Of a DNA stretch of 64,000 bases, positions 1,407 through 62,110 are shown in pieces (position 1 is the stretch's first letter; every line of letters begins with the position of its first letter). The translations under genes and the position numbers were made by a program. Source of the stretch: Vulcanimicrobiota bacterium (GTDB taxonomy: Bacteria > Vulcanimicrobiota > Vulcanimicrobiia > Vulcanimicrobiales > Vulcanimicrobiaceae). The stretch lies in assembly GCA_963795855.1 (NCBI GenBank), contig CAWCIZ010000002.1, positions 639,452-703,451 of the forward strand, read 5' to 3'. The notes beneath the pieces were generated by a model. The model saw only the letters and a program-made list of their open reading frames with translations, was not told the DNA's origin and did no database searches.

Positions 1407-1993
1407 ACTTTCGTTTTCAGCGTTGCCGCGGCTTTTGCCGCGATGCGCGCGGCGATTGCGGAGCATCGCGGTCCTTCACGCATGAGAAACGGCAGATCGC
1501 GCCACGCGCGCGGCTGCAGCAATGCGCGCGCAGGCCGCATCCAAGCCGCGGAAATTTCACGTTCGGGCGTATCGAGTATTACGCGAACGCAGGCGACGCG
1601 AGGAGCGCGAAGCAGCGCCGTTTCCATGTCTACGCCCGCATATCCGAGAGCCCCCAACCTTTGGCGTTCCACTCCGTATACGAGCGTTGCGCTCGTGTAG
1701 AGCGGATCGAGCAGCACGTCGTGACCTAATCCTCGGGCGGCTTGTTCGAGGGCATGCACGGCGGCAGCGTCGCACTCCACACGATGGCCGTCGGGGCCGC
1801 GAACTACCTGCGGAACGAGCACCGTACCGGTCGTTACTCCGGCTCGAACGCCGCCGGCAAGCCCGCAGCTAATCGCGAGATCTTCGAACGTTCGCCGGCG
1901 TGCCAGCGCCACGCCGCATTGGACGACGGAGATATCGGCGCCGGCGTACCGGCGAACGGCTCGTGCTTCCGTGCTTGTCGCGGCGACGATCGT
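1403..1993 (-). CDS. hpnG: Hopanoid-associated nucleoside phosphorylase-like protein
   Basis: Motifs ISCGLAGG and GVDMET, position in the hpn operon. The N-terminal IVAATSTEARAV lies upstream of the first GTG (1912), so the start is inferred at ACG 1993. Confidence 0.75.
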   Translation of the reverse strand, partial: TIVAATSTEARAVRRYAGADISVVQCGVALARRRTFEDLAISCGLAGGVRAGVTTGTVLVPQVVRGPDGHRVECDAAAVHALEQAARGLGHDVLLDPLYTSATLVYGVERQRLGALGYAGVDMETALLRAPRVACVRVILDTPEREISAAWMRPARALLQPRAWRDLPFLMREGPRCSAIAARIAAKAAATLKTKV

Positions 1994-2991
1994 TACGATG
2001 AGGCGTACCCGCGATCGCGATACCAGCGCACCGCGCGTTCCAGCGCAGCGAGTACGGGCCCGGGTTGGAATTGCAACTCGCGCCGCGCTTTAGCGCTGTC
2101 TGCGTACATGCGCACGCGCGACATCTTCACGCCTTCGACCGGAACGCGCGGCGTCGATCCGCGGCTCATGCGACACCGCGCCTCGTCGGCATAGGCGATC
2201 GCAAGTGCGAGGGCATCCGGCACACGCCAGCGCGGCACCGCCTTTCCGGTCACCTCCGAAAGCAATCGCCACACGTCGTCGAGCAGCAAATTTTCCGCGC
2301 CGAGAATGTAGCGTTCTCCCGGAGTCCCGGCGCGCAAGGCTGCAACGTGCGCGCGCGCGACGTCCTCGACCGGCACCAAATTCAAACCGCCGCGCGGCGG
2401 CTTTGCAAACATTTTCCCGCGCGCGAAATCGAGAATCATCCGTCCCGTTGGCGTGGGTTTCCAATCGCCCGGGCCGACCGGCGCCGTCGGCAGCAGCGCA
2501 ACGACCGGCACGCGGCCGGCGAAGGCCGCGCGTTCCTGATCCACTTTTGAATGATGGTATCCGGGCGAACGCCCTTCAGTCGCATAATCGTCTTCGGTGC
2601 GCGGACGTCCGTCCCGCGATGCGCCGAGCGTGGCGGAACTGGACGTCAACACGACGCGTTCCACGCCGGCGACGCGCGCCGCTTCCAGCAGCCCCGCCGT
2701 CCCGAGCACGTTCACCCGACGCACCATCGCCCGATCGGCCGGCGCAAATGAATACAGCGCCGCGCAGTGCACGACGTATCGGCATCCGTCCAGCGCGCGC
2801 GCCCACGCTCCGACCTGCTGCAGATCGCCGGTGACGTAGTCCACGCCGTCGGCCGCTTGTTTCGCGCGCACCAATGCGCGTACGTCATAACCGGCCGCAA
2901 TCAATTCGCGCAGAACGTGCGCGCCGACGAATCCGCTGCTTCCGGTCAGAAAGACTTTGTCAGCCACAATCACTCGCACGAGCGGCGGCAC
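1993..2991 (-). CDS. hpnA: Hopanoid-associated NAD-dependent epimerase/dehydratase
   Basis: TGSSGFVG Rossmann motif, YHHSK, PTAPVGPGDWKPTPTG. The true start may be GTG 2973 or 2967. Confidence 0.9.
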   Translation of the reverse strand: MPPLVRVIVADKVFLTGSSGFVGAHVLRELIAAGYDVRALVRAKQAADGVDYVTGDLQQVGAWARALDGCRYVVHCAALYSFAPADRAMVRRVNVLGTAGLLEAARVAGVERVVLTSSSATLGASRDGRPRTEDDYATEGRSPGYHHSKVDQERAAFAGRVPVVALLPTAPVGPGDWKPTPTGRMILDFARGKMFAKPPRGGLNLVPVEDVARAHVAALRAGTPGERYILGAENLLLDDVWRLLSEVTGKAVPRWRVPDALALAIAYADEARCRMSRGSTPRVPVEGVKMSRVRMYADSAKARRELQFQPGPVLAALERAVRWYRDRGYASS

Positions 2992-3134
2992 GGCATGTCA
3001 TTTTTGTCGCCAGTCGCCTTTCCGCATCCGTGCGGAAAGCGCTCCTTCGGCCTCTTCCCTGCTTCATAATGCTGTCCTAGCTTATGCAGCGAATTCACAC
3101 GCGCCCAAAATGACATGCCATGCCGCCGCTCATG
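2977..3134 (-). repeat. 28-bp inverted repeat enclosing about 100 nt with internal hairpins (RNA helix or MITE-like element)
   Basis: 2977-3004 pairs with 3107-3134. The two DNA mismatches are G-U pairs on the minus-strand mRNA. Inner 9-bp hairpin at 3018-3039. Confidence 0.85.
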
Positions 3135-3136
3135 GA

Positions 3137-4144
3137 TTAGTGCGCCAGTGCGGCCCGGATGCTTTCCTTTACCGATGCGGTCGTCTTTACGACCGCCGTC
3201 GGTTCGTACCCGCAATGCGCCATGCAGTTCGCGCACTTCGGATGTTTGCCGCGCCCGTACTTCTCCCAGTCCGTTTCCTCGATGAGTTCTTTGTACGTCT
3301 TGGCGTAGGCTTCATCCGACATCAGGTAACACGGGCGCTGCCACCCGAAGATCGAGTACGACGGAATGCCCCACGGCGTGCACTCCATGTCGACTTTGCC
3401 TTCGAGGAAGTCCAGAAAGAGCGGGCTGTGGTTGAGGCGCCACTTCTTGCGCTTGCCTCCGGCGAACGCTTCACGGAAGATCGAACGCGTGCGTTCGACG
3501 CCGAGGAAGTGTTCCTGATCCGGCGCCTTCTCGTACGCGTAACCGGGCGATATCTGCATCGAGTCGACTTCGAGTTCGTCGTTCAGATAATCCAGCACCG
3601 CCCGAATCGTCGTTGCATCGTCGGGATCGAAGAACGTCGTATTCGTCGAAACGCGGAAACCCTTCGCCTTGGCGACCTTGATCGCGCTCACGGCTTTGTC
3701 GAACGTGCCGTCGCGGCAAACCACTTGGTCGTGTCGCTCTTTGAGGCCGTCCAAGTGAATCATCCACGTAAAGAGCGGATTCGGTTTGAACTTGTCGATC
3801 TTCTTCTCGAGCAGCAGCGCGTTGGTACAAATGATGACCACTTTCTTGCGCGCGATCAACTCGTCGACCAACCGCGGCAGTTCCTCGTAAACCAGCGGCT
3901 CGCCGCCCGCGATCGATATGACGGGCGCGCCGCACTCCTCGATCGCCGCAACGCAGTCTTCGACCGTCAGCCGCTTGCGCAGGACGTCGTTCGGATACTG
4001 AATCTTGCCGCAGCCCGCACAGGCCAAGTTGCATTGAAACAGCGGCTCGAGCTCCATGACGAGCGGATACTTTTTCTCGCCCTTGAGTTTCTTGCCAAAG
4101 ATGTACTTGGCAATTTGCAGTTTTTGCGCGAAGGGTGTGCTCAT
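3137..4144 (-). CDS. hpnH: Adenosylhopane synthase, radical SAM enzyme
   Basis: YPLVMELEPLFQCNLACAGCGKI; C-terminal CTPWG, WQRPCYL and CANCMAHCGYE. Confidence 0.95.
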   Translation of the reverse strand: MSTPFAQKLQIAKYIFGKKLKGEKKYPLVMELEPLFQCNLACAGCGKIQYPNDVLRKRLTVEDCVAAIEECGAPVISIAGGEPLVYEELPRLVDELIARKKVVIICTNALLLEKKIDKFKPNPLFTWMIHLDGLKERHDQVVCRDGTFDKAVSAIKVAKAKGFRVSTNTTFFDPDDATTIRAVLDYLNDELEVDSMQISPGYAYEKAPDQEHFLGVERTRSIFREAFAGGKRKKWRLNHSPLFLDFLEGKVDMECTPWGIPSYSIFGWQRPCYLMSDEAYAKTYKELIEETDWEKYGRGKHPKCANCMAHCGYEPTAVVKTTASVKESIRAALAH

Positions 4145-4146
4145 TG

Positions 4147-6126
4147 TTACGCTGGTACCTGTTGCCTTTTGAGAGTCGTGCCGGCACTCGCCTTCTCTTT
4201 CGCGGCGCGGTCCATCGCCAGCGCCATCGTCGGAAAGAGATGCCGGTACATATGGTAGTTCAAATAAAAGTCTCTGGGGAACCCCGTACCCGTGAAATAC
4301 GGCTCGTCCCAGGTGCCGTCCGGGCGCTGCCGCCTACGGAGAAACTCCAAACCCCGCTGCGCCGCCTCATGCTGCGTCATTCCCGCCCATTGCAGCGTCA
4401 TCACGGCCCAAGCCGTCTGCGACGGCGTACTCGTGCCGATACCGGCGAACGACTCGTCCTCGTACGAGTAGCAGCTTTCGCCCCATCCGCCGTCCGCGTT
4501 CTGCTTGGATATCATCCACTCCGCCGCGCGCAGCACCATATCCGCACCTTCATGGAACTGCGCAAGGGCCGATACGACGCACCACGTGCCGTAAATGTGA
4601 TTGACACCCCAGCGCCCGAACCACGAGCCCGCCGGTTTCTGCGTGTCGCGCAGATAGCGGAGGGCGCTTGCGGCGTCGGGATCTCCGGTGTCGCGGCCGA
4701 GCATCGCAAGCATCTCGAGCACGTGCGCCGTGACGTCTTCGGTCGGCGGGTCGATCATCGCACCGAAGTCCGAGAACGGCATGCGATAAAGAATCTCGCT
4801 CGTGTTGTCGCGATCGAACGCGGCCCACGCGCCGTTGCTCGAGCGCATCGCGAGCGTCCACGTCACCGCGCGATCCACGGCTTCACGAACGCGCTCCGGG
4901 TCGCCGCCTTCGAGCAGCGAGCACACGATCACGGCGGTGTCGTCGATGTCGGGATAAACGTCGTTATCGAATTCGAACGCCCAGCCGCCATTGGGAACGC
5001 CTTTGCACCGCACTTGCCAGTCGCCCCACTGATCGCCTGAAATCTGTTCTTTCAGCATCCACTCGACCGCCCTGCGCATTGCCGGATGGTCGGCGCGCAG
5101 ACCGGCTTGGAACAACGCCCGAATCGCCCACGCGGTATCCCACACGGGCGACATGCAGGCTTGAAAACGCCAGCCGCTTTCGTCGGCGAACGCGAAACGC
5201 TCCATTCCCGCAAGGCCTTTTCGCATGACCGGACTATCGAGAGAATACCCTTCGAGATCGAGCGCGATCAGCGAATACACCCACGGCGGCTGAATGCCCC
5301 CCCAGCTGCCGTCGCACTCCTGACGCTCCACCACCCAGCGGATCATTCTTCTGCACGCCGCTTCGCGTCCGGGTTTGAACGGCGATCGCTCGTAGATCTT
5401 CAGCGCTTTGTCGACCCACCACAGCCAGCCGTGGCCCGGCACGTCGTGCATGCGCGCGTGCGTTCCGGGGTTGACGATTTCCTCAACGTCGACGCCCAGT
5501 TCACGGACGGGCCGTCGCGCGATCACGACGCAGAGCGGCCCGACGGTGCCGCGCGCCCAGCACGCGAAATCGTACAAATTGAACGGCATCCACGGCGGAA
5601 AATTCACGATCTCCGGCGGCATCGTCGGTACGCCGTCCCACGGGTACTTGCCGAACAGCGCCATCCAGATTTTTGTGAAGACGCGCGCGTCGGCGAGGCC
5701 GCCCAGTTTGCGTATCGTCGCGAGCGCACGGCGCATTTCATCGCGCGCTGCATCGACGCCGAGCACTTTCAACGCGACGTACGCTTCGATCGTCGTACTC
5801 AGATCCGCAGGGCCGTCATAGTACAGCGCCCACGATCCGTCCGCGCGCTGATGATGAAGGATGTGACGGATTGCGCCTTCACGAATCGGCTCGTGCGATA
5901 AACCGAGGAAACGCAGCAGCAGCACGTGCTCGGCCGTCATCGTGACGTTCGTCTCGAGTTCGTCGGTCCACCAACCGTCGGGATGCTGGCGATCCAGCAG
6001 CCAGCTAACGGCGCGATCTAAGTGCGTGCTGTTGTTAATCGTGCTCCCCCGACGAGAACTTGTGCTGCTTTCAAACCGCTGCGAACGGCCGACTCCATCG
6101 TATCCGGCCAACCGGTTGCCGTCCAT
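4147..6126 (-). CDS. shc: Squalene-hopene cyclase
   Basis: YPDIDDTA catalytic motif, QW repeats (QHPDGWW, QRADGSW, QNADGGW), FTGTGFPRDFYLNY. The true start is probably near 6039. Confidence 0.97.
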   Translation of the reverse strand: MDGNRLAGYDGVGRSQRFESSTSSRRGSTINNSTHLDRAVSWLLDRQHPDGWWTDELETNVTMTAEHVLLLRFLGLSHEPIREGAIRHILHHQRADGSWALYYDGPADLSTTIEAYVALKVLGVDAARDEMRRALATIRKLGGLADARVFTKIWMALFGKYPWDGVPTMPPEIVNFPPWMPFNLYDFACWARGTVGPLCVVIARRPVRELGVDVEEIVNPGTHARMHDVPGHGWLWWVDKALKIYERSPFKPGREAACRRMIRWVVERQECDGSWGGIQPPWVYSLIALDLEGYSLDSPVMRKGLAGMERFAFADESGWRFQACMSPVWDTAWAIRALFQAGLRADHPAMRRAVEWMLKEQISGDQWGDWQVRCKGVPNGGWAFEFDNDVYPDIDDTAVIVCSLLEGGDPERVREAVDRAVTWTLAMRSSNGAWAAFDRDNTSEILYRMPFSDFGAMIDPPTEDVTAHVLEMLAMLGRDTGDPDAASALRYLRDTQKPAGSWFGRWGVNHIYGTWCVVSALAQFHEGADMVLRAAEWMISKQNADGGWGESCYSYEDESFAGIGTSTPSQTAWAVMTLQWAGMTQHEAAQRGLEFLRRRQRPDGTWDEPYFTGTGFPRDFYLNYHMYRHLFPTMALAMDRAAKEKASAGTTLKRQQVPA

Positions 6127-7304
6127 GCGCCCGCAACGGCGAGATTCGCCAGCTTGGTTGCAGCGGCAGGACGCGCGGCACCGGGTTGCGCCAAGTACGT
6201 TCCTTCCGGATTACGGGTCGCCGCGCCTCGAACGAGCCGCGCGCCCGCGAGCGCGGGAAGCGCCGCTTGCAGTTCGCTCCACGCAATCGCGACCATGTCG
6301 GCGGAAGGCCGTCCGACGAGATCGTCCGCAGCGCTGATACTGCAACACAAATACCGCTCGCCCTTCTTGAACACCCATTGCACCGGCGAATCGAGGATGG
6401 CGGCAAACTCGAAATCGACGTCGCCGCCTTCGTACCACAAATGCACGTCCATAATCGCGAACGGCTCGTAGACGTCGAGCGGCGGCAATCCGAAGCGCGC
6501 CGGTTCGCCGAGCAGTTTCGCAAGCGCGCGCGGCGGTACTGCTAGAACGGCTGCGTCGAAACGCGATTCGCCCGCGGAGGTGCGCAGGACGATCTCGTCT
6601 GCATCGGCCTCGACGGCGAGCACCGCGCAAGAACGGTGCACGGAATCGAGGCGAGCAGCGGCGCCGTCCATGACGTTCGCGAGCGGCACCTTCGTGTACC
6701 CGAAACGCGCGGCGTTGCGGTCGTGCAAAAAAGCCGTGGAAATCACGAACGCCGCTTCGGCGGCGTTCATGCGGTCGAGCGGCGCGTTCAACGCCGGAAT
6801 CAGGAACGGCTCCCAAAAACTGCGGATGGTTCTCGGACTTTGGCCGTGCGCGCGCAGCCACTGCGCGAAGCTCGCGTCCTCACGCGCGCTGCGCGGCCGC
6901 AGGCGAAGCGAGAGCAGGGCACGCGCGATCTCCAGTTTTTCGCGCAGCGACAGATGTTTGTATCCGGCGAACGACGCGAGCAAATGAAACGGCGCGGGCA
7001 ATGCGGCGGCGCGCAAACCGCTGCGCGTTCCGCGTTTTGAATAGACGACGACGTTGAAGCGATCTTGCAGATGCAGGGCGTTTCCCATTCCGGCTCGCCG
7101 CACGAAGCGCACGAACTCCGTGCAGCATGCCAAATAGACGTGCTGCCCATTGTCGACGACGTGTCCGTCGACTTCGAAGGATGTGGCGCGGCCACCGAGC
7201 AGCCGGCTGCGCTCGAACAGCTCGACGCGCCAGCCCGCCTCCTTGAGTTCGATTGCGGCGGCAAGGCCGGCCAATCCGCCGCCCACGACTGCCGCAGCGG
7301 GCAC
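6018..7304 (-). CDS. hpnE: Hydroxysqualene dehydroxylase (FAD-dependent)
   Basis: VVGGGLAG, GGRATSF, DNGQH, GWPDTMESAV. GTG overlaps the hpnD stop (TAGTG). Confidence 0.92.
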   Translation of the reverse strand: MPAAAVVGGGLAGLAAAIELKEAGWRVELFERSRLLGGRATSFEVDGHVVDNGQHVYLACCTEFVRFVRRAGMGNALHLQDRFNVVVYSKRGTRSGLRAAALPAPFHLLASFAGYKHLSLREKLEIARALLSLRLRPRSAREDASFAQWLRAHGQSPRTIRSFWEPFLIPALNAPLDRMNAAEAAFVISTAFLHDRNAARFGYTKVPLANVMDGAAARLDSVHRSCAVLAVEADADEIVLRTSAGESRFDAAVLAVPPRALAKLLGEPARFGLPPLDVYEPFAIMDVHLWYEGGDVDFEFAAILDSPVQWVFKKGERYLCCSISAADDLVGRPSADMVAIAWSELQAALPALAGARLVRGAATRNPEGTYLAQPGAARPAAATKLANLAVAGAWTATGWPDTMESAVRSGLKAAQVLVGGARLTTART

Positions 7305-8224
7305 TATGCGTCGTCCGCGGGCTGCCGCATGCCGCTGGAGGGGCGCAGCCACGATCCCAACACGACTTGCAGTTTCTCGCCCTTCGAAAGCGCGGCACGC
7401 TCGCGCAGCGGAAGCTGCGGATCGCGCTCGATCTTGCGCAGCAAGCGTTCGTAGATTCCCGCCATGGTTTGCACGCATGCCGCCGGACGGCGCGGAATGT
7501 AGCGCAATACTTCGTATCCCGCTTGAAACAATTGCCTCGCGCGCTGCGTCTCGAATTCAATCAGCGCTTCCCAGCCCGCTCCCGGCTGCACGCGGAGCAT
7601 TTCTTCCTCGCCGATGCCGAACCGGCGCAAATCTTCCTCCGGCAAGTAGATGCGGCCCATCTCGGCGTCTTCGCGCACGTCGCGCAGGATGTTCGTCAGC
7701 TGCAGCGCCAGCCCCAGATCGTCCGCGCGAAGCAGCGCCACGTCCTCGGTAAATCCGAAGATGCGAACGCACATGCGGCCGACCACCGATGCGACCAGCC
7801 GGCAATACTCGCGCAAATCGTCCCACGTCGCATAGCGCGTGTGCGTGCAATCGCGCTCCACCCCGTCGATCAGCGCCTGCAGTTCGGCCTCCGGCACCGC
7901 GTACCGCTCCACGGCCTTGGAAAGCACCTGCATCACCGGGTCGTCGAACTCGCCGAGCATGCAGCGGCGTACGCGTTCGCGCTGCTCCGCCAAACGCTGC
8001 GGGATCGCTTCCGGCCGCGGCGCGCCGTCGACTTCGTCGTCAACCTGCCGCGCGAAATCGTACAGCGAGTAGATCGCCATGCGCTGATCGTGCGGAAGTG
8101 AAATGAAACCCCAATAAAAATTCTTGGCTTCACGCCGCGCCATCTGACGACAGAAGCGCTCCGCTTCTTGCTCGACGCTTCGCGGGCGGCGCATGTACCG
8201 AACCGCGTCAAGCGGTTTCAGCAT
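7304..8224 (-). CDS. hpnD: Presqualene diphosphate synthase
   Basis: NFYWGF, DDEVD, YCRLVASVVG, LQLTNILRDVREDA. SD GGAGGT before ATG 8224. Confidence 0.92.
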   Translation of the reverse strand: MLKPLDAVRYMRRPRSVEQEAERFCRQMARREAKNFYWGFISLPHDQRMAIYSLYDFARQVDDEVDGAPRPEAIPQRLAEQRERVRRCMLGEFDDPVMQVLSKAVERYAVPEAELQALIDGVERDCTHTRYATWDDLREYCRLVASVVGRMCVRIFGFTEDVALLRADDLGLALQLTNILRDVREDAEMGRIYLPEEDLRRFGIGEEEMLRVQPGAGWEALIEFETQRARQLFQAGYEVLRYIPRRPAACVQTMAGIYERLLRKIERDPQLPLRERAALSKGEKLQVVLGSWLRPSSGMRQPADDA

Positions 8225-9053
8225 TGCGCACCTCCGCACGGCTGCGAGCCGCTTCGATAAGCGCTCGTACGAGAATTCCCACCTTTGCCCGATTCGATAC
8301 CGACGGGCGGGTCACTTCCGTCGCATACCCCAATCGTTCGATGGCGTCGCAAATCGCGGTGCCGCCCAGACGATACAGCGCGAGTTGCAGTCGAAGCGAG
8401 CCGGGAGTCATCGATTCGAGCATTCTGCCCGATGCAAGCAGCGAACGCGCGCGCGCGACCAGCGCTTTAACGGCACCGCGTGTGCCGCCCGCGGTGAGAT
8501 CGTCTTCGAGCAAATAGGAGCGGCCGATCTTTCGATCGCGGCTCACGTCCTGAGCGTGATTCGCGAGTTGCAGTCCGATACAGACGTCGTCGGAAAGTTT
8601 TTCGGCGACGCTGCCGCGGATGCCGAAGAAACGCAGCACCACACGCCCGACCGGCGCGGCGGAAAGCATGCAGTAGGCTTCCAGTTCGGGCCACGTACGA
8701 TACGCGTGAACGCGCTGGTCCTGTTCGTTGGCCGCGATCAGATCGAGGAACGGCTGCTTGTCCAAGCGGTGCTGCGCGATTGTTTGCGCGAGGGCCACCA
8801 GCACGGGATGGACGGGCGGCGCGCCCGCAAACAGTGCTTCGGTCTCTTCGCGCCAGCGCGCCAATCGCAAAAGCGCCGCCTCGGCGGATCCGCTTTCGTC
8901 TCCCAAATCGTCGGTCGTGCGGCAGAACCCGTAGAACCGCATTAAATCGACGCGTATTGGTGCAGGAACGATCCTCGAGGCCACCGCGAAATTCTCATAG
9001 TGCCTGGTCGCCAGCATGCGGCAATAGGCGTCGGCGCTTTCAACTTCGGTCAC
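8208..9053 (-). CDS. hpnC: Hydroxysqualene synthase
   Basis: HYENFAVAS, DDLGDE, SAAPVGR, LQLANHAQDV. Confidence 0.92.
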   Translation of the reverse strand: MTEVESADAYCRMLATRHYENFAVASRIVPAPIRVDLMRFYGFCRTTDDLGDESGSAEAALLRLARWREETEALFAGAPPVHPVLVALAQTIAQHRLDKQPFLDLIAANEQDQRVHAYRTWPELEAYCMLSAAPVGRVVLRFFGIRGSVAEKLSDDVCIGLQLANHAQDVSRDRKIGRSYLLEDDLTAGGTRGAVKALVARARSLLASGRMLESMTPGSLRLQLALYRLGGTAICDAIERLGYATEVTRPSVSNRAKVGILVRALIEAARSRAEVRNAETA

Positions 9054-10089
9054 GGACTATGCGTTTCGTGGAGCGAAGCCGCGAGAGACTGGACTCTCCG
9101 AGTGCGAACATCGCTATTCGCAAGACTTCGATGAATTCGCGCGCGAGTTGCGACGCCGCTTCGTACCCGGCTGCCGCCGCGCGCAAGAACGGTCCTGCGA
9201 CGCCGACGATGTCGGCACCCAATGCAAGCGCTTTGACGGCGTCGATTCCGGTGCGAATGCCGCCGCTCGCGATGAGCAAGCCGTACGGTCCCATGCCGAC
9301 TGCACCGCGCAGACATTCCGCCGTCGGTATTCCCCATCCCCCAAAGGACGCTGCGATGTTCGCGCGCCACGGCTCCGCGATGCGATGGCGCTCGACTTCG
9401 CTCCAGGACGTTCCACCGGCGCCTGCGAGGTCGACAGCCGCTACGCCCGCTTCGAAGAGCGCGTGCACTTCATCGGGTGCGATGCCCCAGCCGACTTCTT
9501 TCACGACGACGGGTGCGTCGAGTTTCGAGCAAACCGCCGCAATCTTGTCAATCAGTCCGCGAAAGCACGTGTCGCCTTCGGGCTGCACCGCCTCCTGCAG
9601 CGCGTTCAAGTGCAGCACCAGCGCATCGGCATGCAGCATGTCGACGAGCCTCCGGCAGTGCTCGATGCCGTACCCCTTGTTCAATTGTACCGCGCCCAAG
9701 TTTGCCAGAAGCGCGACGTCGGGAGCGAGAGAACGCACGTCGAACGTGTCGAGCAGCTGCGGATCTTCGAGCAGCGCGCGTGCCGAGCCCAGACCCATGG
9801 CCAAACGATGCTCCTGCGCGGCTTGCGCGATCGCGCGATTTATCGCTCGCGCTTCCGGCGTTCCGCCCGTCATGCACGAAATCAGCAACGGCGCGCGCAG
9901 CGAACGTCCGAACAACGTGCACGACGTGTCTACGTCGTCGAGATCGATTTCAGGCAGCGCGCAATTGATCAGGCGGTACTCGTCGAAGCCGCTTTCGACC
10001 CCTTTGCCGGCTACGTCGCGTTCGAGATTGATGCGAAGGTGATCGGCTTTACGCGAAGTCGTGCCGCTATCGCGATCGAGTTGCGACGT
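9040..10089 (-). CDS. fni: Type 2 (FMN-dependent) isopentenyl-diphosphate delta-isomerase
   Basis: RKADHL, MTGG, ANLGAVQL, HLNALQEAVQPEGD, KEVGWG, GAGGTSW. Start inferred at ACG 10089 behind GAGGTG. Confidence 0.93.
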   Translation of the reverse strand, partial: TSQLDRDSGTTSRKADHLRINLERDVAGKGVESGFDEYRLINCALPEIDLDDVDTSCTLFGRSLRAPLLISCMTGGTPEARAINRAIAQAAQEHRLAMGLGSARALLEDPQLLDTFDVRSLAPDVALLANLGAVQLNKGYGIEHCRRLVDMLHADALVLHLNALQEAVQPEGDTCFRGLIDKIAAVCSKLDAPVVVKEVGWGIAPDEVHALFEAGVAAVDLAGAGGTSWSEVERHRIAEPWRANIAASFGGWGIPTAECLRGAVGMGPYGLLIASGGIRTGIDAVKALALGADIVGVAGPFLRAAAAGYEAASQLAREFIEVLRIAMFALGESSLSRLRSTKRIVRDRS

Positions 10090-11125
10090 AATAGGCCACC
10101 TCTTCGAAGGCTTCGCGCGCTTCTGCTCCGATACCGCTGCGTTCCACGACGCTTACCGCCTTCGCGGCATACCGTTCGGCCGTCACACGCGTAAGCTCAT
10201 CGCAGCCCACTTCATCCAGCAGAGCGCGCAGTTTCGGTTCCGGATCCTCCTGCCGCGCGCGGAAGATTTCGCGAAGCCGCCGCCGCTGCAGCGTCGACAT
10301 GACGCCCAGTCCCGCAACGACCGGATACGTCATTTTGAACCGGCCCGCGTCCCCGCTGCTCGATTTTCCCGTGATCGAGGGATTGCCGTACATTCCGAGC
10401 CAGTCGTCGCGGATTTGGAATGCCGTGCCGAGCAAACGGCCCGCGCGGCGAAAAAGCGCGGCCGATGCTTCGTCTGCACCGGCAAGCACCGCGCCGGACT
10501 CGACGCTGGCGCCGAGAAGTGCTCCCGTTTTGGCGGCGACCATGCGCAGGTACGCGCGCAGCGTCGTGTCGATCTGCCCTTCCAGTTCAAGATCCAGGCA
10601 TTGCCCTTCGATGACGATCAAACCGGCCGACGCAATCGCCGCAACGGCGCGCAGCGCACGCTCCGAATGCTTCGCGCCTTGCGCTACGGAGTAAAACGCG
10701 AGCGTCTGCATCGCATCGCCCGCGTTGATGGCTTGCGGGATTCCCCAAAGCGACCACACGGTTTCGCGCCCGTGACGCTTGCGATCGCCGTCCTGTATGT
10801 CGTCGTGCACGAGCGTGAAATTATGGAACCATTCGATCGCCGCAGCCGCCGGAAGCGCTTCCACCGCCTCGGATCCGAGCGCGGAGCAGGCCCACAAGCA
10901 CAAGCTCGGGCGAACCAGTTTGCCGGTTTTGACCGTAGTCGGGCGGCCGGCTTCGTCGGCCCAGCCCATGTGATAAGCCACCATCTTTCCCGAAAGCCGG
11001 GAAAACGGCAGCGTGCGCCCGCGCATGTATTCGGCGATGAGGGAACGATGGCGGCTGAGCAGCAGCGGCTCGACGTCCGCGTTGCCCGCCGCAGCATGCG
11101 CTCTCGGCTCGGGATGTGCCTGTAT
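10067..11125 (-). CDS. Polyprenyl (FPP/GGPP) diphosphate synthase
   Basis: GKLVRP, LVHDDIQDGDRKRHGR, GQCLD, KTGAL, FQIRDD. Start inferred at ATA 11125; first ATG is at 11026. Confidence 0.92.
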   Translation of the reverse strand: MQAHPEPRAHAAAGNADVEPLLLSRHRSLIAEYMRGRTLPFSRLSGKMVAYHMGWADEAGRPTTVKTGKLVRPSLCLWACSALGSEAVEALPAAAAIEWFHNFTLVHDDIQDGDRKRHGRETVWSLWGIPQAINAGDAMQTLAFYSVAQGAKHSERALRAVAAIASAGLIVIEGQCLDLELEGQIDTTLRAYLRMVAAKTGALLGASVESGAVLAGADEASAALFRRAGRLLGTAFQIRDDWLGMYGNPSITGKSSSGDAGRFKMTYPVVAGLGVMSTLQRRRLREIFRARQEDPEPKLRALLDEVGCDELTRVTAERYAAKAVSVVERSGIGAEAREAFEEVAYYVATRSR

Positions 11126-11290
11126 ATCCGGACTCCTCTATGGACGTCGGCTACTCGTAGTTCACTTTCCCACCCGGTTGCTTCACTACACGAAGCCGCC
11201 GAGACCAAAACGCTTGGCCGCCGGAGCGCGTCCGGCCTGCGAGCCGTGACCGAGGCCCGCGCAACCGCCGTGACGCATTAGTGCGCCAGC

Positions 11291-25462: not shown

Positions 25463-25469
25463 CGGACGG

Positions 25470-28872: not shown

Positions 28873-30537
28873 TTATATCGAATACTCCCACGGGTTCCAA
28901 AACGCAGAGATGACAGGCGAAGGCGCGAAGCCTTTGAGGTCGGTGTTGTACAGGTACGGTTCCTTCCAGAAGAACAGCACGATCGTAGGCACATCCTTGG
29001 CCATCTGCTGCTGAACGATCTCGTAGTCGTGCTTGCGCCGGTTTCGGTCGAGCGTATTCATCGCGTCGTTCATTGCCGCGGTCGCCGCCGGATTGTTCCA
29101 GAACAGCGCATTTTGACCGTGAGGCGCGAAATTCTCGCCGGAGTAGATCGCGCTGTCATCGGGATCCGCCGCAGCATTCCAACTGTAAAGCGCCGCATCG
29201 TAGTGCCCGCCCTGCAGCGTCCCGGTCGTTCCGTTCTGGAACATCAACGCGGTGGGGACGTTCTTGACGATCGCTTCAGCACCGATTTCGTGCCATTGGC
29301 GCTGCAGCAGCGTTTGGATCTGTCGCGCGTAGTTGCTCTCCGCGGCGCTCGTCAGATCGAAAGAGAGCTTCTGCCCGTTCTTCACTCGAATTCCGTCCGC
29401 GCCGCGCTTCCAACCGTCGGCTTCGAGGATCTGCTGCGCTTTCGCGGGATCGAACGGATGATGTTCTATCGCATCGGTATGCGCCCAAGAAAGTTCCGGC
29501 GATTGATCCGTCTCGGACGCAACCGCCGCACCGTGCATTACTTTGTCGACGATCTCCTGACGGTTCGTCGCATACGCGAGCGCCAGCCGAACGTTGCGAT
29601 CCGAAAGGAGCGGACGCCGAAGATTGAAGTCGATATGCGTGTAAATATAGGCGTCGACCAGCACCATCTTCAGGCCGGACGTTTGCGTCACGATTTGCTG
29701 GTAGCGCGGCAGGCTCAAACCTGTTCCGCGCGCCAGCATGTCGATGTCGTGCGTTTGCAGCGCGGTCCCGATCGTATTCTCGTCCGGCATGATCTTGAAC
29801 ACGACTTCGTTGAGCTTCGGCTTCCCGGCCCAGAAATAACGGCTCGCCTCCATCCGTACTTCGCTGCCGCGCTGCCACTGAATGACCTTGAACGGTCCGC
29901 TGCCGATGGGCAGTGAATTGTAGGGCGCGTTGTTCAACGAGCCTTTGTCGTCGTTGTATTTCGCCAGGAGATGCGCCGGCAGAATGACCGCGTTCCCGTT
30001 TACTCCCCAGAGTTGCTGCAAGTACGGGGCGTACATCTTCTTCATGTGCACGACCGCGACGCGCGGATTGCTGCAGTCGATGTCTTTGATATCTTTGTAG
30101 CCGTCGGTGGTGACGACGTTGTTGTGCGGGTTCATCACGGCTTGCCACGTGAACTTGAGATCCGCGCACGTGACGGGCTGACCGTCCTGCCAGCGCAAAT
30201 TCGGCCGCAGTTTGTACTTGAGCGTCAAGCCGTCTTTGCTGACGTCGCCGTTCGCAACCGTGGGAACCTCGCTCACCGCGTCGGGAACGGGCTGCGCTTT
30301 GTCGTTGTACCGCACCGCGTACGAGTAAATGAACATCGACAGGTCGCCCGTAACAGCGGACGCGTTGAGCAATGGATTGAGCGAAGACGGTGAAGCGTTT
30401 TCCGCATATCGCAGGACGCCGGGCTGCGTCCAGGAGTTCCGGGCGCCGATCGCGCCGCCGCCCGCGCTCTGTTTCGTGCACGAAGCCAAGAAGAGGGCTG
30501 CGGCGAGCGCCGCCGCGCATTGGTGCGACAGTTTCAG
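28873..30537 (-). CDS. Peptide ABC substrate-binding lipoprotein, copy 4
   Basis: Lipobox LASC; WQDGQPVTCADL; PIGSGPF. Start inferred at CTG 30537; alternative ATG 30591. Confidence 0.92.
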   Translation of the reverse strand: MKLSHQCAAALAAALFLASCTKQSAGGGAIGARNSWTQPGVLRYAENASPSSLNPLLNASAVTGDLSMFIYSYAVRYNDKAQPVPDAVSEVPTVANGDVSKDGLTLKYKLRPNLRWQDGQPVTCADLKFTWQAVMNPHNNVVTTDGYKDIKDIDCSNPRVAVVHMKKMYAPYLQQLWGVNGNAVILPAHLLAKYNDDKGSLNNAPYNSLPIGSGPFKVIQWQRGSEVRMEASRYFWAGKPKLNEVVFKIMPDENTIGTALQTHDIDMLARGTGLSLPRYQQIVTQTSGLKMVLVDAYIYTHIDFNLRRPLLSDRNVRLALAYATNRQEIVDKVMHGAAVASETDQSPELSWAHTDAIEHHPFDPAKAQQILEADGWKRGADGIRVKNGQKLSFDLTSAAESNYARQIQTLLQRQWHEIGAEAIVKNVPTALMFQNGTTGTLQGGHYDAALYSWNAAADPDDSAIYSGENFAPHGQNALFWNNPAATAAMNDAMNTLDRNRRKHDYEIVQQQMAKDVPTIVLFFWKEPYLYNTDLKGFAPSPVISAFWNPWEYSI

Positions 30538-36700: not shown

Positions 36701-36767
36701 CAACAACCCTTTCTCTGGCGGAAGCGAATCCTTTTACCAGGAACGTTCTTCACGCCTGCGCGTTCGC

Positions 36768-37274: not shown

Positions 37275-37400
37275 CGCTCCTTTCCCTCCCCTACGTTAAG
37301 TTTCGACCAGCTTGCTCGCTCCAGTTTAGCTGCTTGCTCTGCCGCAAAGCGGGGCGGCGGGGGCGAAAGGATGCGGGCGCGCCGCGAGCACCTGTCCAGC

Positions 37401-42046: not shown

Positions 42047-42054
42047 GCGCAGCC

Positions 42055-43521: not shown

Positions 43522-44863
43522 CGGCGAACGCGAAGCGGTCGCGCAACGCGTGCTCGGTATTTTCGAGAGCCGACGAAACCGAAATCATCGTCGCAAGCGC
43601 GTCCGACGAACTCACGCGCTTCACGCACAATATGGTTCACCAAAACGTCGGCGCGGTCGACGTCTCCGTTCGGGTTCGCGCGATTATCGGACAGACGCAC
43701 CGGCGTCGCAACGCACGAACATTTGAGCGACGACTCGCTTCGCGGCGCCGTGTCGCGCGCGATCGAGATCGCGACGCTCGCGCCGGAGGATCCGGCTTGC
43801 CCGCGATGTCCGCGGGCCGCTTCCGCCGAGTCGCCGGAAGGCGCATACGTGAAGCAAACCGCGCAAGCGACGCCGCAGATTGCGCGCGCGCATGTGCGAC
43901 GAAATCTTCCGCATCGCGCAAGATCGCGGGTATTGGTGCGCGGGATACGTCACGACCGAGCACCGGCGGCATTACCGTTTTGAATTCAAGCGGCGCGCGC
44001 GCGTCGTTCGACGGCACCGACAGCGGCGTGAACGTGAAGATGAACGCAGCCGACTCGAGCGGCTTCGCGCGAAGGCTATGACAACGACGTCGCCGCGCTG
44101 GACGCGCATGCGATCGGCGAGCGCTCCGCGCGCAAAGCACAGAGATTCGGCGCATCCGCAAACCGTCGAACCCGGACAGTGGACCGTCATTCTGGAACCG
44201 GCCGCCTTCGGCGAACTCTTCTCGTATCTCGTCGATCATTTTTCCGCGCAGTCTTACGAAGAAGGCTCGTCGTTCCTCGAGCGATGGGCTCGGGACAGAC
44301 AGTACCTCGGCGAGAACGTGACGATCGGCGACGATTACGCGCACCCGCTCAATCCGGGCATGCCGTTCGATTATGAAGGGCAGCCGACGTCAGCGCATTG
44401 TCGCTCGTCGAAGACGGCGTCGCGCGAGAACATCGTCACCGACAGCGTACTACGCCAGCGAAACTCGGAGCGGGAAAACACCGGCCACGCGCTGCCCGCT
44501 CCGAATGCATACGGCCCGCAGGCGCTGCACACGTGGTCATCGCTCCGGGAAGCAAGCCGCTTCAACGAACTCATCTCCGAAACCAAGCGCGGGCTGCTGG
44601 TCACGCGTTTCTGGTACATTCGCACCGTCGATCAAAAAAGGCGATCGTCACCGGAATGACGCGCGACGGCACTTTCCTTATCGAAAACGGCGACCGTGAC
44701 GAGCGGCGTGCGCAACATGCGCTTCAACCAAAGCATCATCGAAGCGCTGCGGCAGCTGCGAGTTCTCAAACGCTCTGCACCGCACCGGCGGCTATTCGTA
44801 TCATTGGTCGTGCCCGCGGCGAAGATCGACGGATTCGCCTTCTCCAGCGGCACGGAGTTTTAG
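43514..44863 (+). CDS. TldE/PmbA-family partner subunit (frameshifted)
   Basis: LTRFTHNMVHQN, VILEPAA, PFDYEG, GLLVTRFWYIR, TGMTRDG; directly after tldD. Confidence 0.82.
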
Positions 44864-45740
44864 CGAAAACGCGATGCCCGCGATCGCTATCGCGGAGCCC
44901 AAAATGAGAATCGGCAGGTAAGGCGCAGACGCTACGACGAGGGCCGGATACGTTTGAACCGCGGCGCTCAACCGCAGATCCCCCAATCGCCTTTTGCACG
45001 TCCGGCGGCGTTATTCCGATGCCGCCCGGCAGCAGCGCGATCGTGCGTGTCGGCGACCGCAAAAAGAACTGCGGGCTTGCCGACGATCGGCGGATCCGTG
45101 TGCAGTTGCGCTGCCTGCTGCGCGGAAAACAGCACCGCCTTGACGTTGCGCTGCGATCGCCGGAACGGAAAACGAATCGAATCGGACGTTCATTCCGGCG
45201 ATGACGGTCTGCTGTTGCATCAGCAGGACCGGTGAAAGAAACGACGCGTTCGTCGGCTGCGTAACCGTCAAGTGGTTTCCGCGCGCATCGGCCGCGTCGA
45301 CGTTCAAAACCGTGCGCGGCCGTTGCCAGAAAATGAAGCCGCCCGTATAGCGGCGGCCGCCGTCCACCCAAGCGGACGAGCGCCCTCGCTGGAATGACGC
45401 GGTTTGCCCTTGGATCGGAAAAACGATCGTTGCGCGCCGCGTCCGCATCGCGCACGCTCGTACCGGGTGCGCCGATCACGGTATGCGTATCGGGGCCCAT
45501 CAGCCCGCTTGCGACGCCCGCGAAAACGAGGATCGCCGCGCCGAACGCGGCAGCGGCGATTGCCGGGAACGCGCGCGAATTGGTCCTGCGGAATCGCGGC
45601 AAATAAGACGCACCCCAAACGAAGAGCGCGACGTTCAGCGCGTTATACCATCCATAGTGATAGACGGCTGCTCCAGGAAACGCGTCCTGAGCAAGCACCA
45701 TTGCCGTCGCGCACGCAAGCAGCACCCAAAATGCCGGCAC
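44801..45740 (-). CDS. Membrane protein, possibly ResB-like cytochrome c biogenesis related (frameshifted)
   Basis: N-terminal TM helices, soluble domain, C-terminal TM; follows a TlpA/ResA-like gene. Family assignment is weak. Confidence 0.5.
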
Positions 45741-46309: not shown

Positions 46310-46592
46310 CTACCAATCGCCCATTCTATCCGGATCGACTTCACCTTCGAATGCGACCATCCCGGGCGGCATGATCGCCGCACTGACCCGAACGCCGTCG
46401 AAAGAGGAGCTCGCGGCGGTGCGCGTCGCCGGCCCTCGCGAACAACTGACAATAGCGGTCCAGAACGTCGGGACTGCATAGGACGAGCGTCGGATGCACT
46501 TGATACATCTGCTGAAAGCTGCGAAACGCGCGCTCGAAATCCGCCGAGCTGAAATGCCGGCCCACCAATATTTCTCGCCGCACGTGCTCCAG
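46310..46592 (-). CDS. Small hypothetical protein (about 93 aa, one frameshift near 46400)
   Basis: AAGGAGG, 8 nt, then CTG; EHVRREILVGRHF...AFEGEVDPDRMGDW. Confidence 0.65.
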
Positions 46593-58822: not shown

Positions 58823-59143
58823 ATGATCCGCGTCCGCGTCCCCCTGGATCTTCATGCGGTCGCCTGCAGCGACTCCGGCGCGTTTGCATTGGCGACGCCG
58901 CTGCGCGTGCGCGATCTTCTTTCCCTCGCCGTGCGCGAAGCCATCGGGAGCCGAGCGCCGGCGGACGCGTTCGCACGCAGTTTGCGCGCGACGCTCGCAG
59001 GTCTTTCGACGGGCCGCTTCACGCTGGACATCGACGGACGACACTTCAGCGACGCGGAAGCCGTCGTCGTCTGCCGGGACACCGCGGACATCCGCTTCTT
59101 CATTCCGGCTCGTCGCCCGGTACCGCAGACTGAACTGGCCTGA
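58823..59143 (+). CDS. Hypothetical protein
   Basis: Fills the gap; coupled to the downstream membrane gene. Confidence 0.55.
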   Translation: MIRVRVPLDLHAVACSDSGAFALATPLRVRDLLSLAVREAIGSRAPADAFARSLRATLAGLSTGRFTLDIDGRHFSDAEAVVVCRDTADIRFFIPARRPVPQTELA

Positions 59144-59144
59144 T

Positions 59145-59864
59145 CTGAACGAACGCCCCGACGACGATCGCCCTTCGTACCGCCCGCTCGCGCTCGTGAC
59201 TGCGCGTTTGCTCGCGAGGCGATGGGCGCTGTATCTGCTTACGTGCGCGGGCGTCTTCACACTGCAAGCGCTGTTCTACACGCTTTCGCACGTCAGGATG
59301 GCCGATTTTTACGCCAATTTGATCGGGCCGCCGCTCGTCATCGTCGTCGTGACGGTATTCGTGGGCGCGGACGCAACGAATACGATGACCGTCGCCCAAC
59401 GCTGGGAGCGCGTGCTCGAGCGCGGCTGGGCGATCATCATATTCGACGTCGCGCTTTCGCTCGTGCAGACCGGCGGACTGCAAACGATGATGTCGGGCGG
59501 CGCGAATCTGGGCGACGTGATCATGGGTTTCCTGACGCTGCTGCTGGCAGCCATGCTCGTCTACGCGGAGCCATTCATCGCCCTCGAAAACGATACGCAA
59601 AGCCTTACGCTTCTGCCGTTTGCGATACTGCGCAGCATGATGCTTGCCTGGGTGAATCTGTCGCGGGTGTTTTCGCTGTTCGCGGTGCAAATCGCGGCGG
59701 TTATCGCATCCCTGTTCGTCCATCAAGCCGTGCAGACGATGGGGTGGAACGCGACGCTGTGGGCCGACCTTCCGTTTTGGACGCTGGTAGCAGCGCCTCT
59801 GGCCGCGCTGTACACGCTCGCGTATCTCGACACTGTTGCGCAAGAGCGCAATTCCGCAGCCTGA
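59145..59864 (+). CDS. Polytopic membrane protein
   Basis: About six hydrophobic helices; start is CTG 59145 or GTG 59196. Confidence 0.72.
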   Translation: MNERPDDDRPSYRPLALVTARLLARRWALYLLTCAGVFTLQALFYTLSHVRMADFYANLIGPPLVIVVVTVFVGADATNTMTVAQRWERVLERGWAIIIFDVALSLVQTGGLQTMMSGGANLGDVIMGFLTLLLAAMLVYAEPFIALENDTQSLTLLPFAILRSMMLAWVNLSRVFSLFAVQIAAVIASLFVHQAVQTMGWNATLWADLPFWTLVAAPLAALYTLAYLDTVAQERNSAA

Positions 59865-59868
59865 GCGG

Positions 59869-61185
59869 CTACGGACGCGTCATCGACATTGCCTCGAGAA
59901 TAGGAGGCAACCGCCCTTGCCGGCCGAGCATCATTTGCGCGAAGAGCGCGTTCGGCCATGCGAAATCGTCGCGCGTGTACGACTCGGGCCAGTCGGCGTT
60001 GAACGACTCGTGCAAGCGGTGGTCGCCGTCGTCCGAGGCTGCGAGGTATCCCATAACGCGGTCAATCTCGCTCTGATCCGTTGAGGTCAGCGCCTGCACG
60101 ACGAGCGCGAGCGGCCACACGTACCCGTGCGGCGTGTGCGGGCTGCCGACGCCGGCGGCATATTTTCCCTGAAAGTAGTACGGGTCGCGCGGCGAGAGAA
60201 TGAACCGGCGCGTCGCCTGATACACGACGTCGCGCACGCCGACGTATCCGAAGTACGGAATCGACAGCAATGACGGAATGTTCGCGTCGTCCATCAAGTT
60301 CGCGTGCCCGTATCCGTCCACTTCATACGCATAGATGCGCCCCACGCCCGGCAAATTCACCAGACCGTAGCGCTCGATGGCGCGCTGAATCTGAACGGAT
60401 AGTCCCCATGCGTTTTCCGCGGTGCGATTGTCGTGATAGACGTTCTTCTCGATCTCCGTCAGGTCGCGCAGCACGACGACCCCGAACATGTTGTCCGGAA
60501 TGTTGAAGTGATACCGCGCGGCGTCGTCGGATGGACGGAACCCCGTCCAAACGAGTCCCGTGTAGGCCGTCGGGGTGCCGCGTCCGCCGTTTGCCAGTTC
60601 CGGGTGGCGGTAGTGCGAGTGCTGGGTATGCCGCTGTTCCGTGCGAAGCGTTGCGAGAACGGCTCCGAACTCGCGCTGAACGGTCGGCGTGAAGATGCTG
60701 CGATCGCCGGTGCCCTTCCAATACAGATAGGCGAACCAAACGGGATACAGCAGCGAGTCCATTTCGAACTTATGCTCGGCGACGTGGTAGTCGTCGGTGA
60801 ACGCGTTGGCGTACGGGTCGCTGAGTATGTACCGCGCTTGACGGGCGACGGTTCCGCGCAGCATCGAGCGCACATACGGATCCGTAAGTCCCTGCCCGAT
60901 GTACGGCGTCATGGTCGCGCTGGAGTCGCGCAGCCACTCCATATTGATATCGCCGGTGGAAACGAACGTCGTGCCGTCCGGCTCGAGAATGGCGTGACGG
61001 CTGTACGCTTCGTCGTAGGCGCGCTGATAGATCTTTTGCAGCGTTACCGCAACCGTTGCCGGATGGTTCGCCGTTGGGGGCGTTTGAGCGGCGGCAGCAG
61101 GGATTGAAAACGACGCGCAAGCCGTCGCGAGCACCATTCCCGTGACGATGCGAGCGCGTCTCATACCCGCGGCCATCCCCATCAA
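59869..61185 (-). CDS. Glycoside hydrolase family 125 (exo-alpha-1,6-mannosidase-like) with signal peptide
   Basis: TGDI..WLRDS, DPYANAF, FRPSDD, YAYEVDG, MDDANIPSLL, GSPHTP, FAWPNALF. Confidence 0.92.
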   Translation of the reverse strand: MMGMAAGMRRARIVTGMVLATACASFSIPAAAAQTPPTANHPATVAVTLQKIYQRAYDEAYSRHAILEPDGTTFVSTGDINMEWLRDSSATMTPYIGQGLTDPYVRSMLRGTVARQARYILSDPYANAFTDDYHVAEHKFEMDSLLYPVWFAYLYWKGTGDRSIFTPTVQREFGAVLATLRTEQRHTQHSHYRHPELANGGRGTPTAYTGLVWTGFRPSDDAARYHFNIPDNMFGVVVLRDLTEIEKNVYHDNRTAENAWGLSVQIQRAIERYGLVNLPGVGRIYAYEVDGYGHANLMDDANIPSLLSIPYFGYVGVRDVVYQATRRFILSPRDPYYFQGKYAAGVGSPHTPHGYVWPLALVVQALTSTDQSEIDRVMGYLAASDDGDHRLHESFNADWPESYTRDDFAWPNALFAQMMLGRQGRLPPILEAMSMTRP

Positions 61186-61342
61186 CGCTTCTCCATAACT
61201 CTACTGTAACGTTATCGGCAAGTCACCGTTCGAATAAACCGTAAAAAAACATTCGAACAGACGTTTCGCGAAAACGCATTTCCGGCGATAATAAAAGATA
61301 CGACGACCCGCTGAGAAACCACCTAGAAAGAGAGCGACCACC

Positions 61343-62110
61343 ATCCGACAACGCGTCAAGATCGTAGGCCTCGGCCTGGCAACGGCGCTGATGCTCGGAA
61401 TGCCGGCCAAGGCCGACCAGGCCTATGCGGTCAGCGGAAACGATCGGTACCAGATCGGTCAAACCGATCTGCAGACAAGCATTGCTTACAGCGGCACCCA
61501 GCGGCTGAGCATCACCCAGGACGGCGCCAAACGGCGCTTCACCGCCCAGGCCACGTACACGCGATCGGACTCGGCGGGCAAGGTGCCGGCGCAAGCGTCC
61601 TTCGTCCAAGAAATGTCGCCTGAGGGCGAGCTGAAAGACCGGATGGATTTGGACCCCGACTATTTGACGGTTCTGAATCAGCCATTCGCGGTCGAACTCG
61701 ACATCGCGACGCTGCAGGATCTGCAGCACCTTCGCGGGCGCGTACCCTTCTCGTTCCCCGCCCCGATGACCGGGGGTACGCTCGCGGGCTACTTGCAGCG
61801 CGGCGGCATGGGCCGGCTCGGAGGACGCCCCGTGTTGAGCGTCGCGTTCGACGCGAATGGGCCGATGGCCGGACCGCTGCCCGATCATTCGCAGATGTCG
61901 ATCACCGGTACGATGCGAATGCGCGGCACGGCATATTACGCGGTGCGCGGCGAGCCGCTGCTGCTCGCGCTCGACGAGACGCTCAGCATATCGGGCACGT
62001 TGCGCGACGGGGAGCACACCTCGCCGGTGAAGATCGTGTACCAGCGATCGATAAAGGCTTCCGGCGGCGGACAGACGTCGGAGACCGCCTCTGCTTCTCC
62101 GCACGCCTGA
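61343..62110 (+). CDS. Secreted beta-rich hypothetical protein
   Basis: Signal peptide is complete only from ATC 61343; first ATG is 61391. Confidence 0.72.
   Translation: MRQRVKIVGLGLATALMLGMPAKADQAYAVSGNDRYQIGQTDLQTSIAYSGTQRLSITQDGAKRRFTAQATYTRSDSAGKVPAQASFVQEMSPEGELKDRMDLDPDYLTVLNQPFAVELDIATLQDLQHLRGRVPFSFPAPMTGGTLAGYLQRGGMGRLGGRPVLSVAFDANGPMAGPLPDHSQMSITGTMRMRGTAYYAVRGEPLLLALDETLSISGTLRDGEHTSPVKIVYQRSIKASGGGQTSETASASPHA

Follow-up and report, generated by a model that had tools for sequence, protein, structure and literature searches.

Conserved, probable near-cognate start codons in the hopanoid operon and other genes of a Vulcanimicrobiaceae genome

The stretch of DNA analysed here (64 kb, hereafter the window) contains a hopanoid operon and other genes whose start codons appear to be near-cognate, i.e. 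CTG, ATT, ATC or ATA. As judged from the alignment of the relatives' start codons, these starts are real and conserved and are not base errors, and 7 of the approximately 50 window genes need one. The window is the final 64 kb of contig C2 of the source assembly G000 (3.06 Mb, 6 contigs, 62 % GC, 86 % complete), which belongs to Vulcanimicrobiota (Eremiobacterota) and, by the nearest named relatives of its initiation factor IF3, to Vulcanimicrobiaceae/Baltobacteraceae, an uncultured soil-dwelling family. A sequence-only reading of the window had pointed to eight near-cognate triplets, most of them behind motifs resembling a Shine-Dalgarno sequence (SD). All eight triplets and the motifs cited with them were found in place and in frame with long open reading frames (ORFs), and alignment with the relatives upheld most of the codon assignments, two of them (in fni and hpnG) having been misread.

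Gene matches were collected from a panel of 41 genomes and numbered 23 for fni, 24 for shc, 19 for hpnG and 38 for oppB; other G-numbers in the text designate genomes of relatives. At the aligned sites, relatives sequenced with short reads and with long reads hold the identical or another near-cognate codon, which answers the concern about base errors. One genome, G014, contributes one ATG row to the fni count and one to the count for the gene at 61343, and G036, from the other order, contributes one helix-44 row; the conclusions are independent of both. A single Sinorhizobium chromid pair (meliloti/medicae, 63 % GC) served as the control lineage. SD strength is given as duplex energy.

On the minus strand the operon has the order polyprenyl synthase, fni, hpnC, hpnD, hpnE, shc, hpnH, hpnA, hpnG, with hpnK-hpnI divergent, and near-cognate starts were found in four of the nine genes. 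The claim that canonical starts would truncate conserved sequence was confirmed, four operon proteins losing 33, 59, 33 and 27 residues; the first ATG, GTG or TTG would also cost 16 residues of each of two signal peptides. The first operon gene (10067..11125, minus strand; PF00348) encodes a polyprenyl synthase of the geranylgeranyl or farnesyl diphosphate (GGPP/FPP) type and starts with ATA at 11125-11123, behind the SD AGAGGAG (11133..11139, minus strand; −8.4 kcal/mol with the 16S tail of G000). There is an in-frame stop four codons upstream, the earliest ATG lies 33 codons downstream, and the NCBIfam prenyl synthase profiles match from residue 16-23. The ATA proposed earlier was borne out, as the start is near-cognate in all 11 close genomes (ATA in 10, ATT in 1), one of these copies also having an ATG within its SD. 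By exact-sequence look-up, the public model of this protein has 319 residues, compared to 352 from the ATA.

The second gene, fni (9040..10092, minus strand; TIGR02151), encodes a type 2 isopentenyl diphosphate isomerase. Its start region overlaps the prenyl synthase stop by 26 nucleotides, and its SD, GAGGTG (10097..10102, minus strand; −10.5 kcal/mol), lies within the prenyl synthase coding tail. No usable canonical codon is present: the first TTG is 59 codons in, past the conserved RKxxH motif (residues 14-18), which aligns to the solved IDI-2 structures PDB 1vcf and 2zru. A non-canonical start had thus rightly been called, but the codon is ATT at 10092-10090 and not ACG 10089, because the ATT ahead of the ACG, behind a GAGGTG-type SD, is kept in 11 of the 11 closest copies, whereas the ACG is ACA in G008, which rules it out as the start. 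The ATT is built from a TAT (Tyr) codon of the overlapping gene, though TAC makes up 68 % of Tyr codons. Among more distant copies seven start with ATG, and five further ones were left unscored.

Squalene-hopene cyclase, shc (4147..6039, minus strand; TIGR01507, and PF13249 from residue 8), starts with ATT at 6039-6037 behind GGGGGAG. Rated earlier as a weaker case, this start proved firm: all eight genus genomes have ATT (4), ATC (3) or ATA (1), and translation from the first downstream ATG would lose 33 residues. The 10 other scored genomes, from which distant or truncated copies were excluded, have ATG, GTG or TTG at the aligned codon. The last operon gene encodes an hpnG-like phosphorylase (1403..1999, minus strand; TIGR03468 below cut-off) and has no SD and no ATG, GTG or TTG between the upstream stop and codon 27. 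A TAACG overlap with the stop of hpnA had earlier been taken as its start; the need for a non-canonical codon stands, but ATC 1999, which overlaps the hpnA stop by 7 nucleotides, fits better than ACG 1993. The ACG is a conserved Thr codon, disfavoured as a start because 5 of the 16 relatives read have ACA or ACC there, and most of the 16 carry an ATG, GTG or TTG 2-9 codons upstream of it, where G000 has ATC 1999. The alignment thus makes ATC 1999 the most likely start, ahead of ACG 1993 or a CTG further up. The remaining operon genes, all on the minus strand, have canonical starts, namely hpnC (8208..9053, GTG), hpnD (7304..8224, ATG), hpnE (6018..7304, GTG), hpnH (3137..4144, ATG) and hpnA (1993..2967, GTG), whose TAA overlaps the hpnG start region.

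Elsewhere in the window, the gene of a substrate-binding lipoprotein of a peptide ATP-binding cassette transporter, sbp (28873..30537, minus strand; PF00496), starts with CTG behind AGAGGAG. The CTG noted earlier recurs in three of seven genus genomes, the others having ATG (3) or GTG (1): G000, G005 and G001 combine CTG with an SD, whereas G002, G003, G004 and G007 have ATG or GTG without one. Four tandem family-5 peptide-binding lipoprotein genes lie at 23837-30537 (minus strand), and about 20 paralogues are found across the genome. A conserved hypothetical protein (46341..46592, minus strand; frameshifted past about codon 64 in G000) starts with CTG behind AAGGAGG, and this CTG is also well kept (18 of 22 genomes; GTG in 2, ATG in 2). 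A GTG three codons downstream is not conserved, being GTA, GTT or GTC in 10 of the 22. A secreted hypothetical protein (61343..62110, plus strand) starts with ATC behind AAAGAGAG, a weak SD; by offsets read by eye, the start in 22 scored genomes is ATC (10), ATT (2), ATG (9) or GTG (1), so that the ATC recognised earlier has an ATC or ATT counterpart in 12 of the 22. The public model begins at ATG 61391 and has 239 instead of 255 residues, most of the signal peptide being gone. Two of the four proteins looked up had truncated public models, and the exact sequences of the other two were absent. The weaker case CTG 59145 lies in a membrane protein gene (59130..59864, plus strand) with three candidate starts, CTG 59130, CTG 59145 and a GTG 17 codons down. 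CTG 59145 has no SD and is CTC in G005, and all three genus genomes compared retain the CTG at 59130.

The pattern was also found outside the window. Among 30 oppB starts fetched, 19 were CTG, 9 ATG and 2 TTG; CTG occurred in 4 of 4 further genus genomes, 10 of 13 other family genomes and 5 of 5 sister-family genomes, as well as in G000, G005 and G012. In the other order all 8 genomes have ATG. The trigger factor gene tig (PF05697) of G000 has CTG behind AGGAG, and the 19 distinct loci among the closest 24 of 80 metagenome matches start with CTG (7), ATG (9), TTG (2) or GTG (1). In several relatives tig lies about 10 bases after a tRNA gene and has an ATG start without SD. In eight genomes lepB has CTG, ATC or GTG adjoining the upstream stop, and in G000 and G002 rsmE has a CTG overlapping the dnaJ stop, the aligned codon being ATG in G051 and G073. 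Further cases, each in one to three genomes, concern genes that we take from their sequences to encode citrate synthase (CTG), an IF1 paralogue (ATC), MurJ (ATT), a sigma factor (ATC) and YmdB (ATA). The IF1 paralogue is a second IF1 gene in G000 (C2:537154, minus strand) with an N-terminal extension, for which ATC behind AAAGGAG is the sole plausible start; the operon copy is canonical. For the prenyl synthase, fni, shc, the genes at 46592 and 61343, oppB and tig, a codon one base away from ATG stands at the N-terminal boundary and no usable canonical codon is available. CTG stays fixed at the starts though its synonym CTC is equally common (35 % each).

Relaxed start-codon selection in the lineage had been suggested earlier. 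The suggestion holds in so far as the pattern is conserved in the family and order and extends to oppB, tig, lepB and rsmE, but its reach is narrower: of the 1424 gene-genome pairs that cover the ribosomal-protein operon in 61 genomes of the phylum, 1379 have a canonical start. The other 45 mostly reflect N-terminal extensions past the search range, and rplO and infA were resolved to ATG. In the ribosomal protein operon of G000 (C2 79000-100500), uL15 and IF1 carry the long Lys/Ala- or Arg-rich N-terminal extensions seen in the class, and the alpha operon has unrelated genes between rpsM and rpsK.

In six of seven genes (shc, the gene at 46592, fni, sbp, oppB and tig) the near-cognate copies had a stronger SD than the canonical copies of the same gene. 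The mean energies for near-cognate and canonical copies, respectively, were −9.4 and −6.0 kcal/mol for shc, −10.2 and −6.9 for the gene at 46592, −9.8 and −5.4 for fni, −8.9 and +1.3 for sbp, and −10.6 and −2.6 for oppB, while for tig the values were −7.3 to −8.3 at CTG compared to mostly weaker than −2 at ATG. Three genes, hpnG, lepB and rsmE, have no SD and a start abutting the upstream stop, which suggests that they may be reached by re-initiation. Canonical starts are poor in SDs, with a median of −4.1 compared to −7.3 in Sinorhizobium, and canonical starts lacking a four-base SD match numbered 101 of 179 for G002 and 115 of 169 for G000, compared to 45 of 172 for Sinorhizobium. At several canonical starts of G002 and G000 a TANNNT-like box precedes the codon by 6-9 bases, and leaderless mRNAs may be common. 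As a cause of the SD-poor starts, leaderless mRNA was backed by a slight TANNNT signal only.

Genome-wide, we estimate that about 2-4 % of genes use near-cognate starts, below the approximately 13 % of the window, a local maximum due to the hopanoid operon; the pattern is wider than the window in taxa and rarer in genes than the window implies. The window figure (7 of about 50 genes; five to seven in about 55 in the earlier reading) overstates that of the genome. When 143 non-window genes were reviewed between G002 and G000, 18 were without a shared canonical start and 3-5 were judged near-cognate; a three-way review of 178 G000 genes left 45, mostly frameshifts, again with 3-5 near-cognate. 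The corresponding S. meliloti/S. medicae review of 184 genes left 12, none convincing. Behind strong SDs, a frame-controlled survey of 2149 G000 gene calls counted 31 near-cognate codons in frame, compared to 16.4 expected from decoy codons (Poisson p ~0.001; 29 without the window genes, p 0.003), next to 154 canonical ones. The SD-anchored survey proposed by the sequence-only reading gives an excess over the frame-shifted control in G000 and none in Sinorhizobium (5 compared to 4.5 or about 3.3, against 121 canonical). In G002 and G005 the counts were 6 compared to 2 and 10 compared to 2.5 out of frame, respectively. This survey recovered two of the seven window cases. Other designs were less informative: in G000, expectation-maximization without constraints across 61 codons failed to settle on a usable answer; an SD-anchored tally gave 69 compared to 80 expected from internal SDs, a control biased by coding codon usage, and so no excess; and in protein-level pairs with G005 and G012 the signal was masked by frameshifts and by ORFs that ran on into upstream genes.

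The initiation machinery looked intact, as seen when infC, the initiator tRNA and the 16S 3' end were inspected, a check that the sequence-only reading had called for. IF3 is present in 61 of 61 genomes with equivalents of two tyrosines that we take to be Tyr70 and Tyr75, and infC starts with ATA in 80 of 80 relatives. The G000 infC (C3 ~583200; L026 1995-2015) reads ATCA GCT where the 80 relatives read ATA GCN in frame, and this one-nucleotide insertion is for that reason a probable assembly error. In G000 the 16S anti-SD tail (CCUCC) and tRNA-fMet (C1·A72 and three G-C pairs) are normal, as are the 16S 790 loop, positions 1338-1339 and the S9 tail SKR; RsmI, RsmH, RsmE, KsgA, RsmD, RsmB and uS9 are present in the five genomes tested, and bS21 in 61 of 61. 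Among the genomes checked, neither loss nor damage was seen in IF3, in the tRNA-fMet determinants, in the decoding-site methylases or in the S9 tail. Two features stood out. IF3 has a C-terminal extension of 30-70 residues in the class, and helix 44 of the family 16S reads 1409-CGUCACCUG, with the pairs C1414-G1486, C1415-G1485 and U1416·G1484, and A1482 at bridge B3 (G000: 16S on C2 ~67340-67450, minus strand). Of 71 family genomes, the 47 with an assembled 16S all carry the variant, and none of 20 other genomes with a 16S does; the other order has C1416. The U1416·G1484 pair and the IF3 tail are regarded as leads only, and a literature search returned no paper on U1414C or A1413C.

Since G000 contains many frameshifts, including those in infC, infA, rpsD and the gene at 46592, an artefact of the indel-rich long-read assembly had to be ruled out before other readings. 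Such an origin is extremely improbable, as the codons recur in fragmented, independently assembled relatives, where they swap among start-type codons, and conservation excludes it for seven of the eight cases. We consider it probable, on the comparative evidence, that near-cognate initiation is tolerated across the order in a minority of genes, being compensated by a strong SD or by coupling. About 2-4 % of genes in the order, and more in the hopanoid operon, would then start at CTG, ATT, ATC or ATA via the normal initiator tRNA. In the usual design, a canonical codon would have weak SD pairing or none; in the second, a strong SD would hold a near-cognate codon in the P site, or ribosomes re-initiating at an overlapping stop would reach it, the route proposed for hpnG, lepB and rsmE. 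Both designs would be interchangeable and give acceptable output, genes would switch between them in evolution, and the most highly expressed genes, those of ribosomal proteins, would retain canonical starts. Conservation, codon swaps and SD co-variation were observed along with the intact-looking machinery; that translation truly begins at the near-cognate codons, with what efficiency and in what share of the genome, we infer. Several observations weigh against this reading. In G000, shc and sbp have an in-frame ATG or TTG 18-29 codons upstream (for sbp in G000 and G005, an ATG 18 codons upstream of the CTG), and the gene at 61343 shows no SD compensation (−5.0 near-cognate compared to −5.8 canonical). 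Kinship among the genomes means that the within-gene SD comparisons are not independent and form a pattern rather than a test. The frame-controlled survey was the fourth design tried and gave the opposite result in G012 (3 compared to 5.5), and three single-genome surveys were flat or noisy. A pair mixture model gave 6.1 % compared to 1.1-1.6 % for decoys with one feature and 3.9 % compared to 0.6-3.9 % without it, and conserved-SD counts outside the window were weak (4 compared to 0-6 and 9 compared to 1-7 for decoys).

A translational throttle or IF3-level regulon, in which the starts were selected to hold hopanoid and isoprenoid enzymes low or to tie them to IF3 or growth rate, is unlikely. 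It would agree with the four of nine operon genes, including the first two and the cyclase, with the GTG or TTG mostly used for shc in other genera, with the infC ATA in all 80 relatives and the IF1 paralogue with only an ATC behind AAAGGAG (one genome), and with one S. aureus start of this kind that responds to the growth medium (PMC13009471). The IF3-responsive regulon suggested earlier is nevertheless unsupported, because the genes serve diverse functions (those of a trigger factor, a peptide permease, a signal peptidase and hypothetical proteins) and sbp flips between CTG with SD and ATG without SD within one genus; strong SDs also run counter to a pure throttle, and fni starts with ATG in the seven more distant relatives. 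It is similarly doubtful that the window is a chance peak on an ordinary background of about 1 % hidden near-cognate starts in many bacteria. Several of the rate tests could not be told from decoys, and D. deserti proteomics, in which 341 N-termini were determined, reports four or more such genes (PMC2830850). Against this stand the lack of a convincing case in 184 Sinorhizobium genes, the two named cases in E. coli and four in S. aureus, and at least 11 genes verified across genomes here from a small sample. A change in trans, by which the family helix 44 or the IF3 extension loosens start-codon checking, seems quite unlikely as the cause. The variant follows the family (47 of 47 compared to 0 of 20 others) and lies where bridge B3 forms and where the IF3 C-domain docks on 16S 1485-1487, according to PMC5037330; C1484G mutants of E. 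coli initiate more at CUG (PMC3082907), the order with C1416 has oppB ATG in 8 of 8, and the abundant trigger factor starts at CTG. The E. coli mutant, however, is mispaired, whereas the family has a wobble pair. This is a single correlation in a single lineage, the sister family with CTG had no assembled 16S, and C1414 is common elsewhere in the phylum, as it is in Bacillota. No abnormality or absence was seen in the IF3 Tyr equivalents, 790 loop, 1338-1339, anti-SD, tRNA-fMet, S9 tail, bS21 or RsmA/B/D/E/H/I. The stronger proposal that helix-44 and IF3 tuning makes CTG and ATN efficient enough for abundant proteins, trigger factor among them, as a two-mode initiation code (an SD-less ATG, or a near-cognate codon behind an SD) on at least 5 % of genes with hopanoid synthesis the most concentrated target, is rather unlikely. 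Global relaxation of an IF3-defective or mitochondrial type does not agree with canonical ribosomal-protein genes and the retention of the fidelity factors in the genomes checked.

Among the closest known parallels is Deinococcus, for which PMC2830850 describes non-canonical starts of dnaA (ATC), rpsL (CTG), Deide_03051 and infC (ATA), with 49 further candidate peptides in the supplement that bear on the baseline. There, as here, family-conserved housekeeping genes start at ATC, CTG or ATA and are mis-annotated. In that case four genes are involved, two with peptide support, whereas here there are probably dozens, recognised by sequence comparison, with rapid flips of design and a cluster in one pathway. 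In S. aureus, infC, cvfC1, ccpN and citZ have non-canonical starts aided by a strong or extended SD, with output reduced to about 10 % of that of AUG (PMC13009471). The combination of near-cognate start and strong SD is shared, but S. aureus has four sites in an SD-rich organism, whereas most canonical starts of this group have poor SDs and the near-cognate codon used most often is CTG. In E. coli the AUU starts of infC and pcnB stand as isolated switches for autoregulation or growth rate (PMC2830850). The infC of this group is likewise non-canonical; comparable feedback on the genes described here would be hypothetical. CUG initiation in E. coli is raised by mutations in 16S helix 44 and the bridges (PMC3082907); at 1414-1416/1484-1486 the family does not match E. 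coli, and its natural helix remains paired. Literature searches for near-cognate starts in Eremiobacterota, for phylum-wide non-canonical starts and for Vulcanimicrobium hopanoid found nothing, most subscription journals lying outside the search.

Bacterial near-cognate starts are usually treated as one-off exceptions. A free-living order with dozens of them, whose orthologues alternate between an SD-less ATG and a CTG backed by an SD, would supply matched pairs made by nature, with which to study the trade-off between SD strength and the checking of start codons by IF3 and helix 44. Gene finders shorten such proteins, so that conserved motifs and signal peptides are lost, and the shortened models would harm cloning, proteomics and hopanoid pathway work in an abundant soil group. 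The window is also indel-rich at about 31000-45000, where genes are fragmented, and the G005 and G012 assemblies likewise contain many frameshifts. Finally, a BCP-type peroxiredoxin (G002 L335 ~22170, plus strand, with an orthologue on C4 of G000) has an in-frame TGA at the active site (TPG-TGA-T) that is common to G000, G002 and G005, and it is probably a selenoprotein, because the genome has tRNA-Sec.

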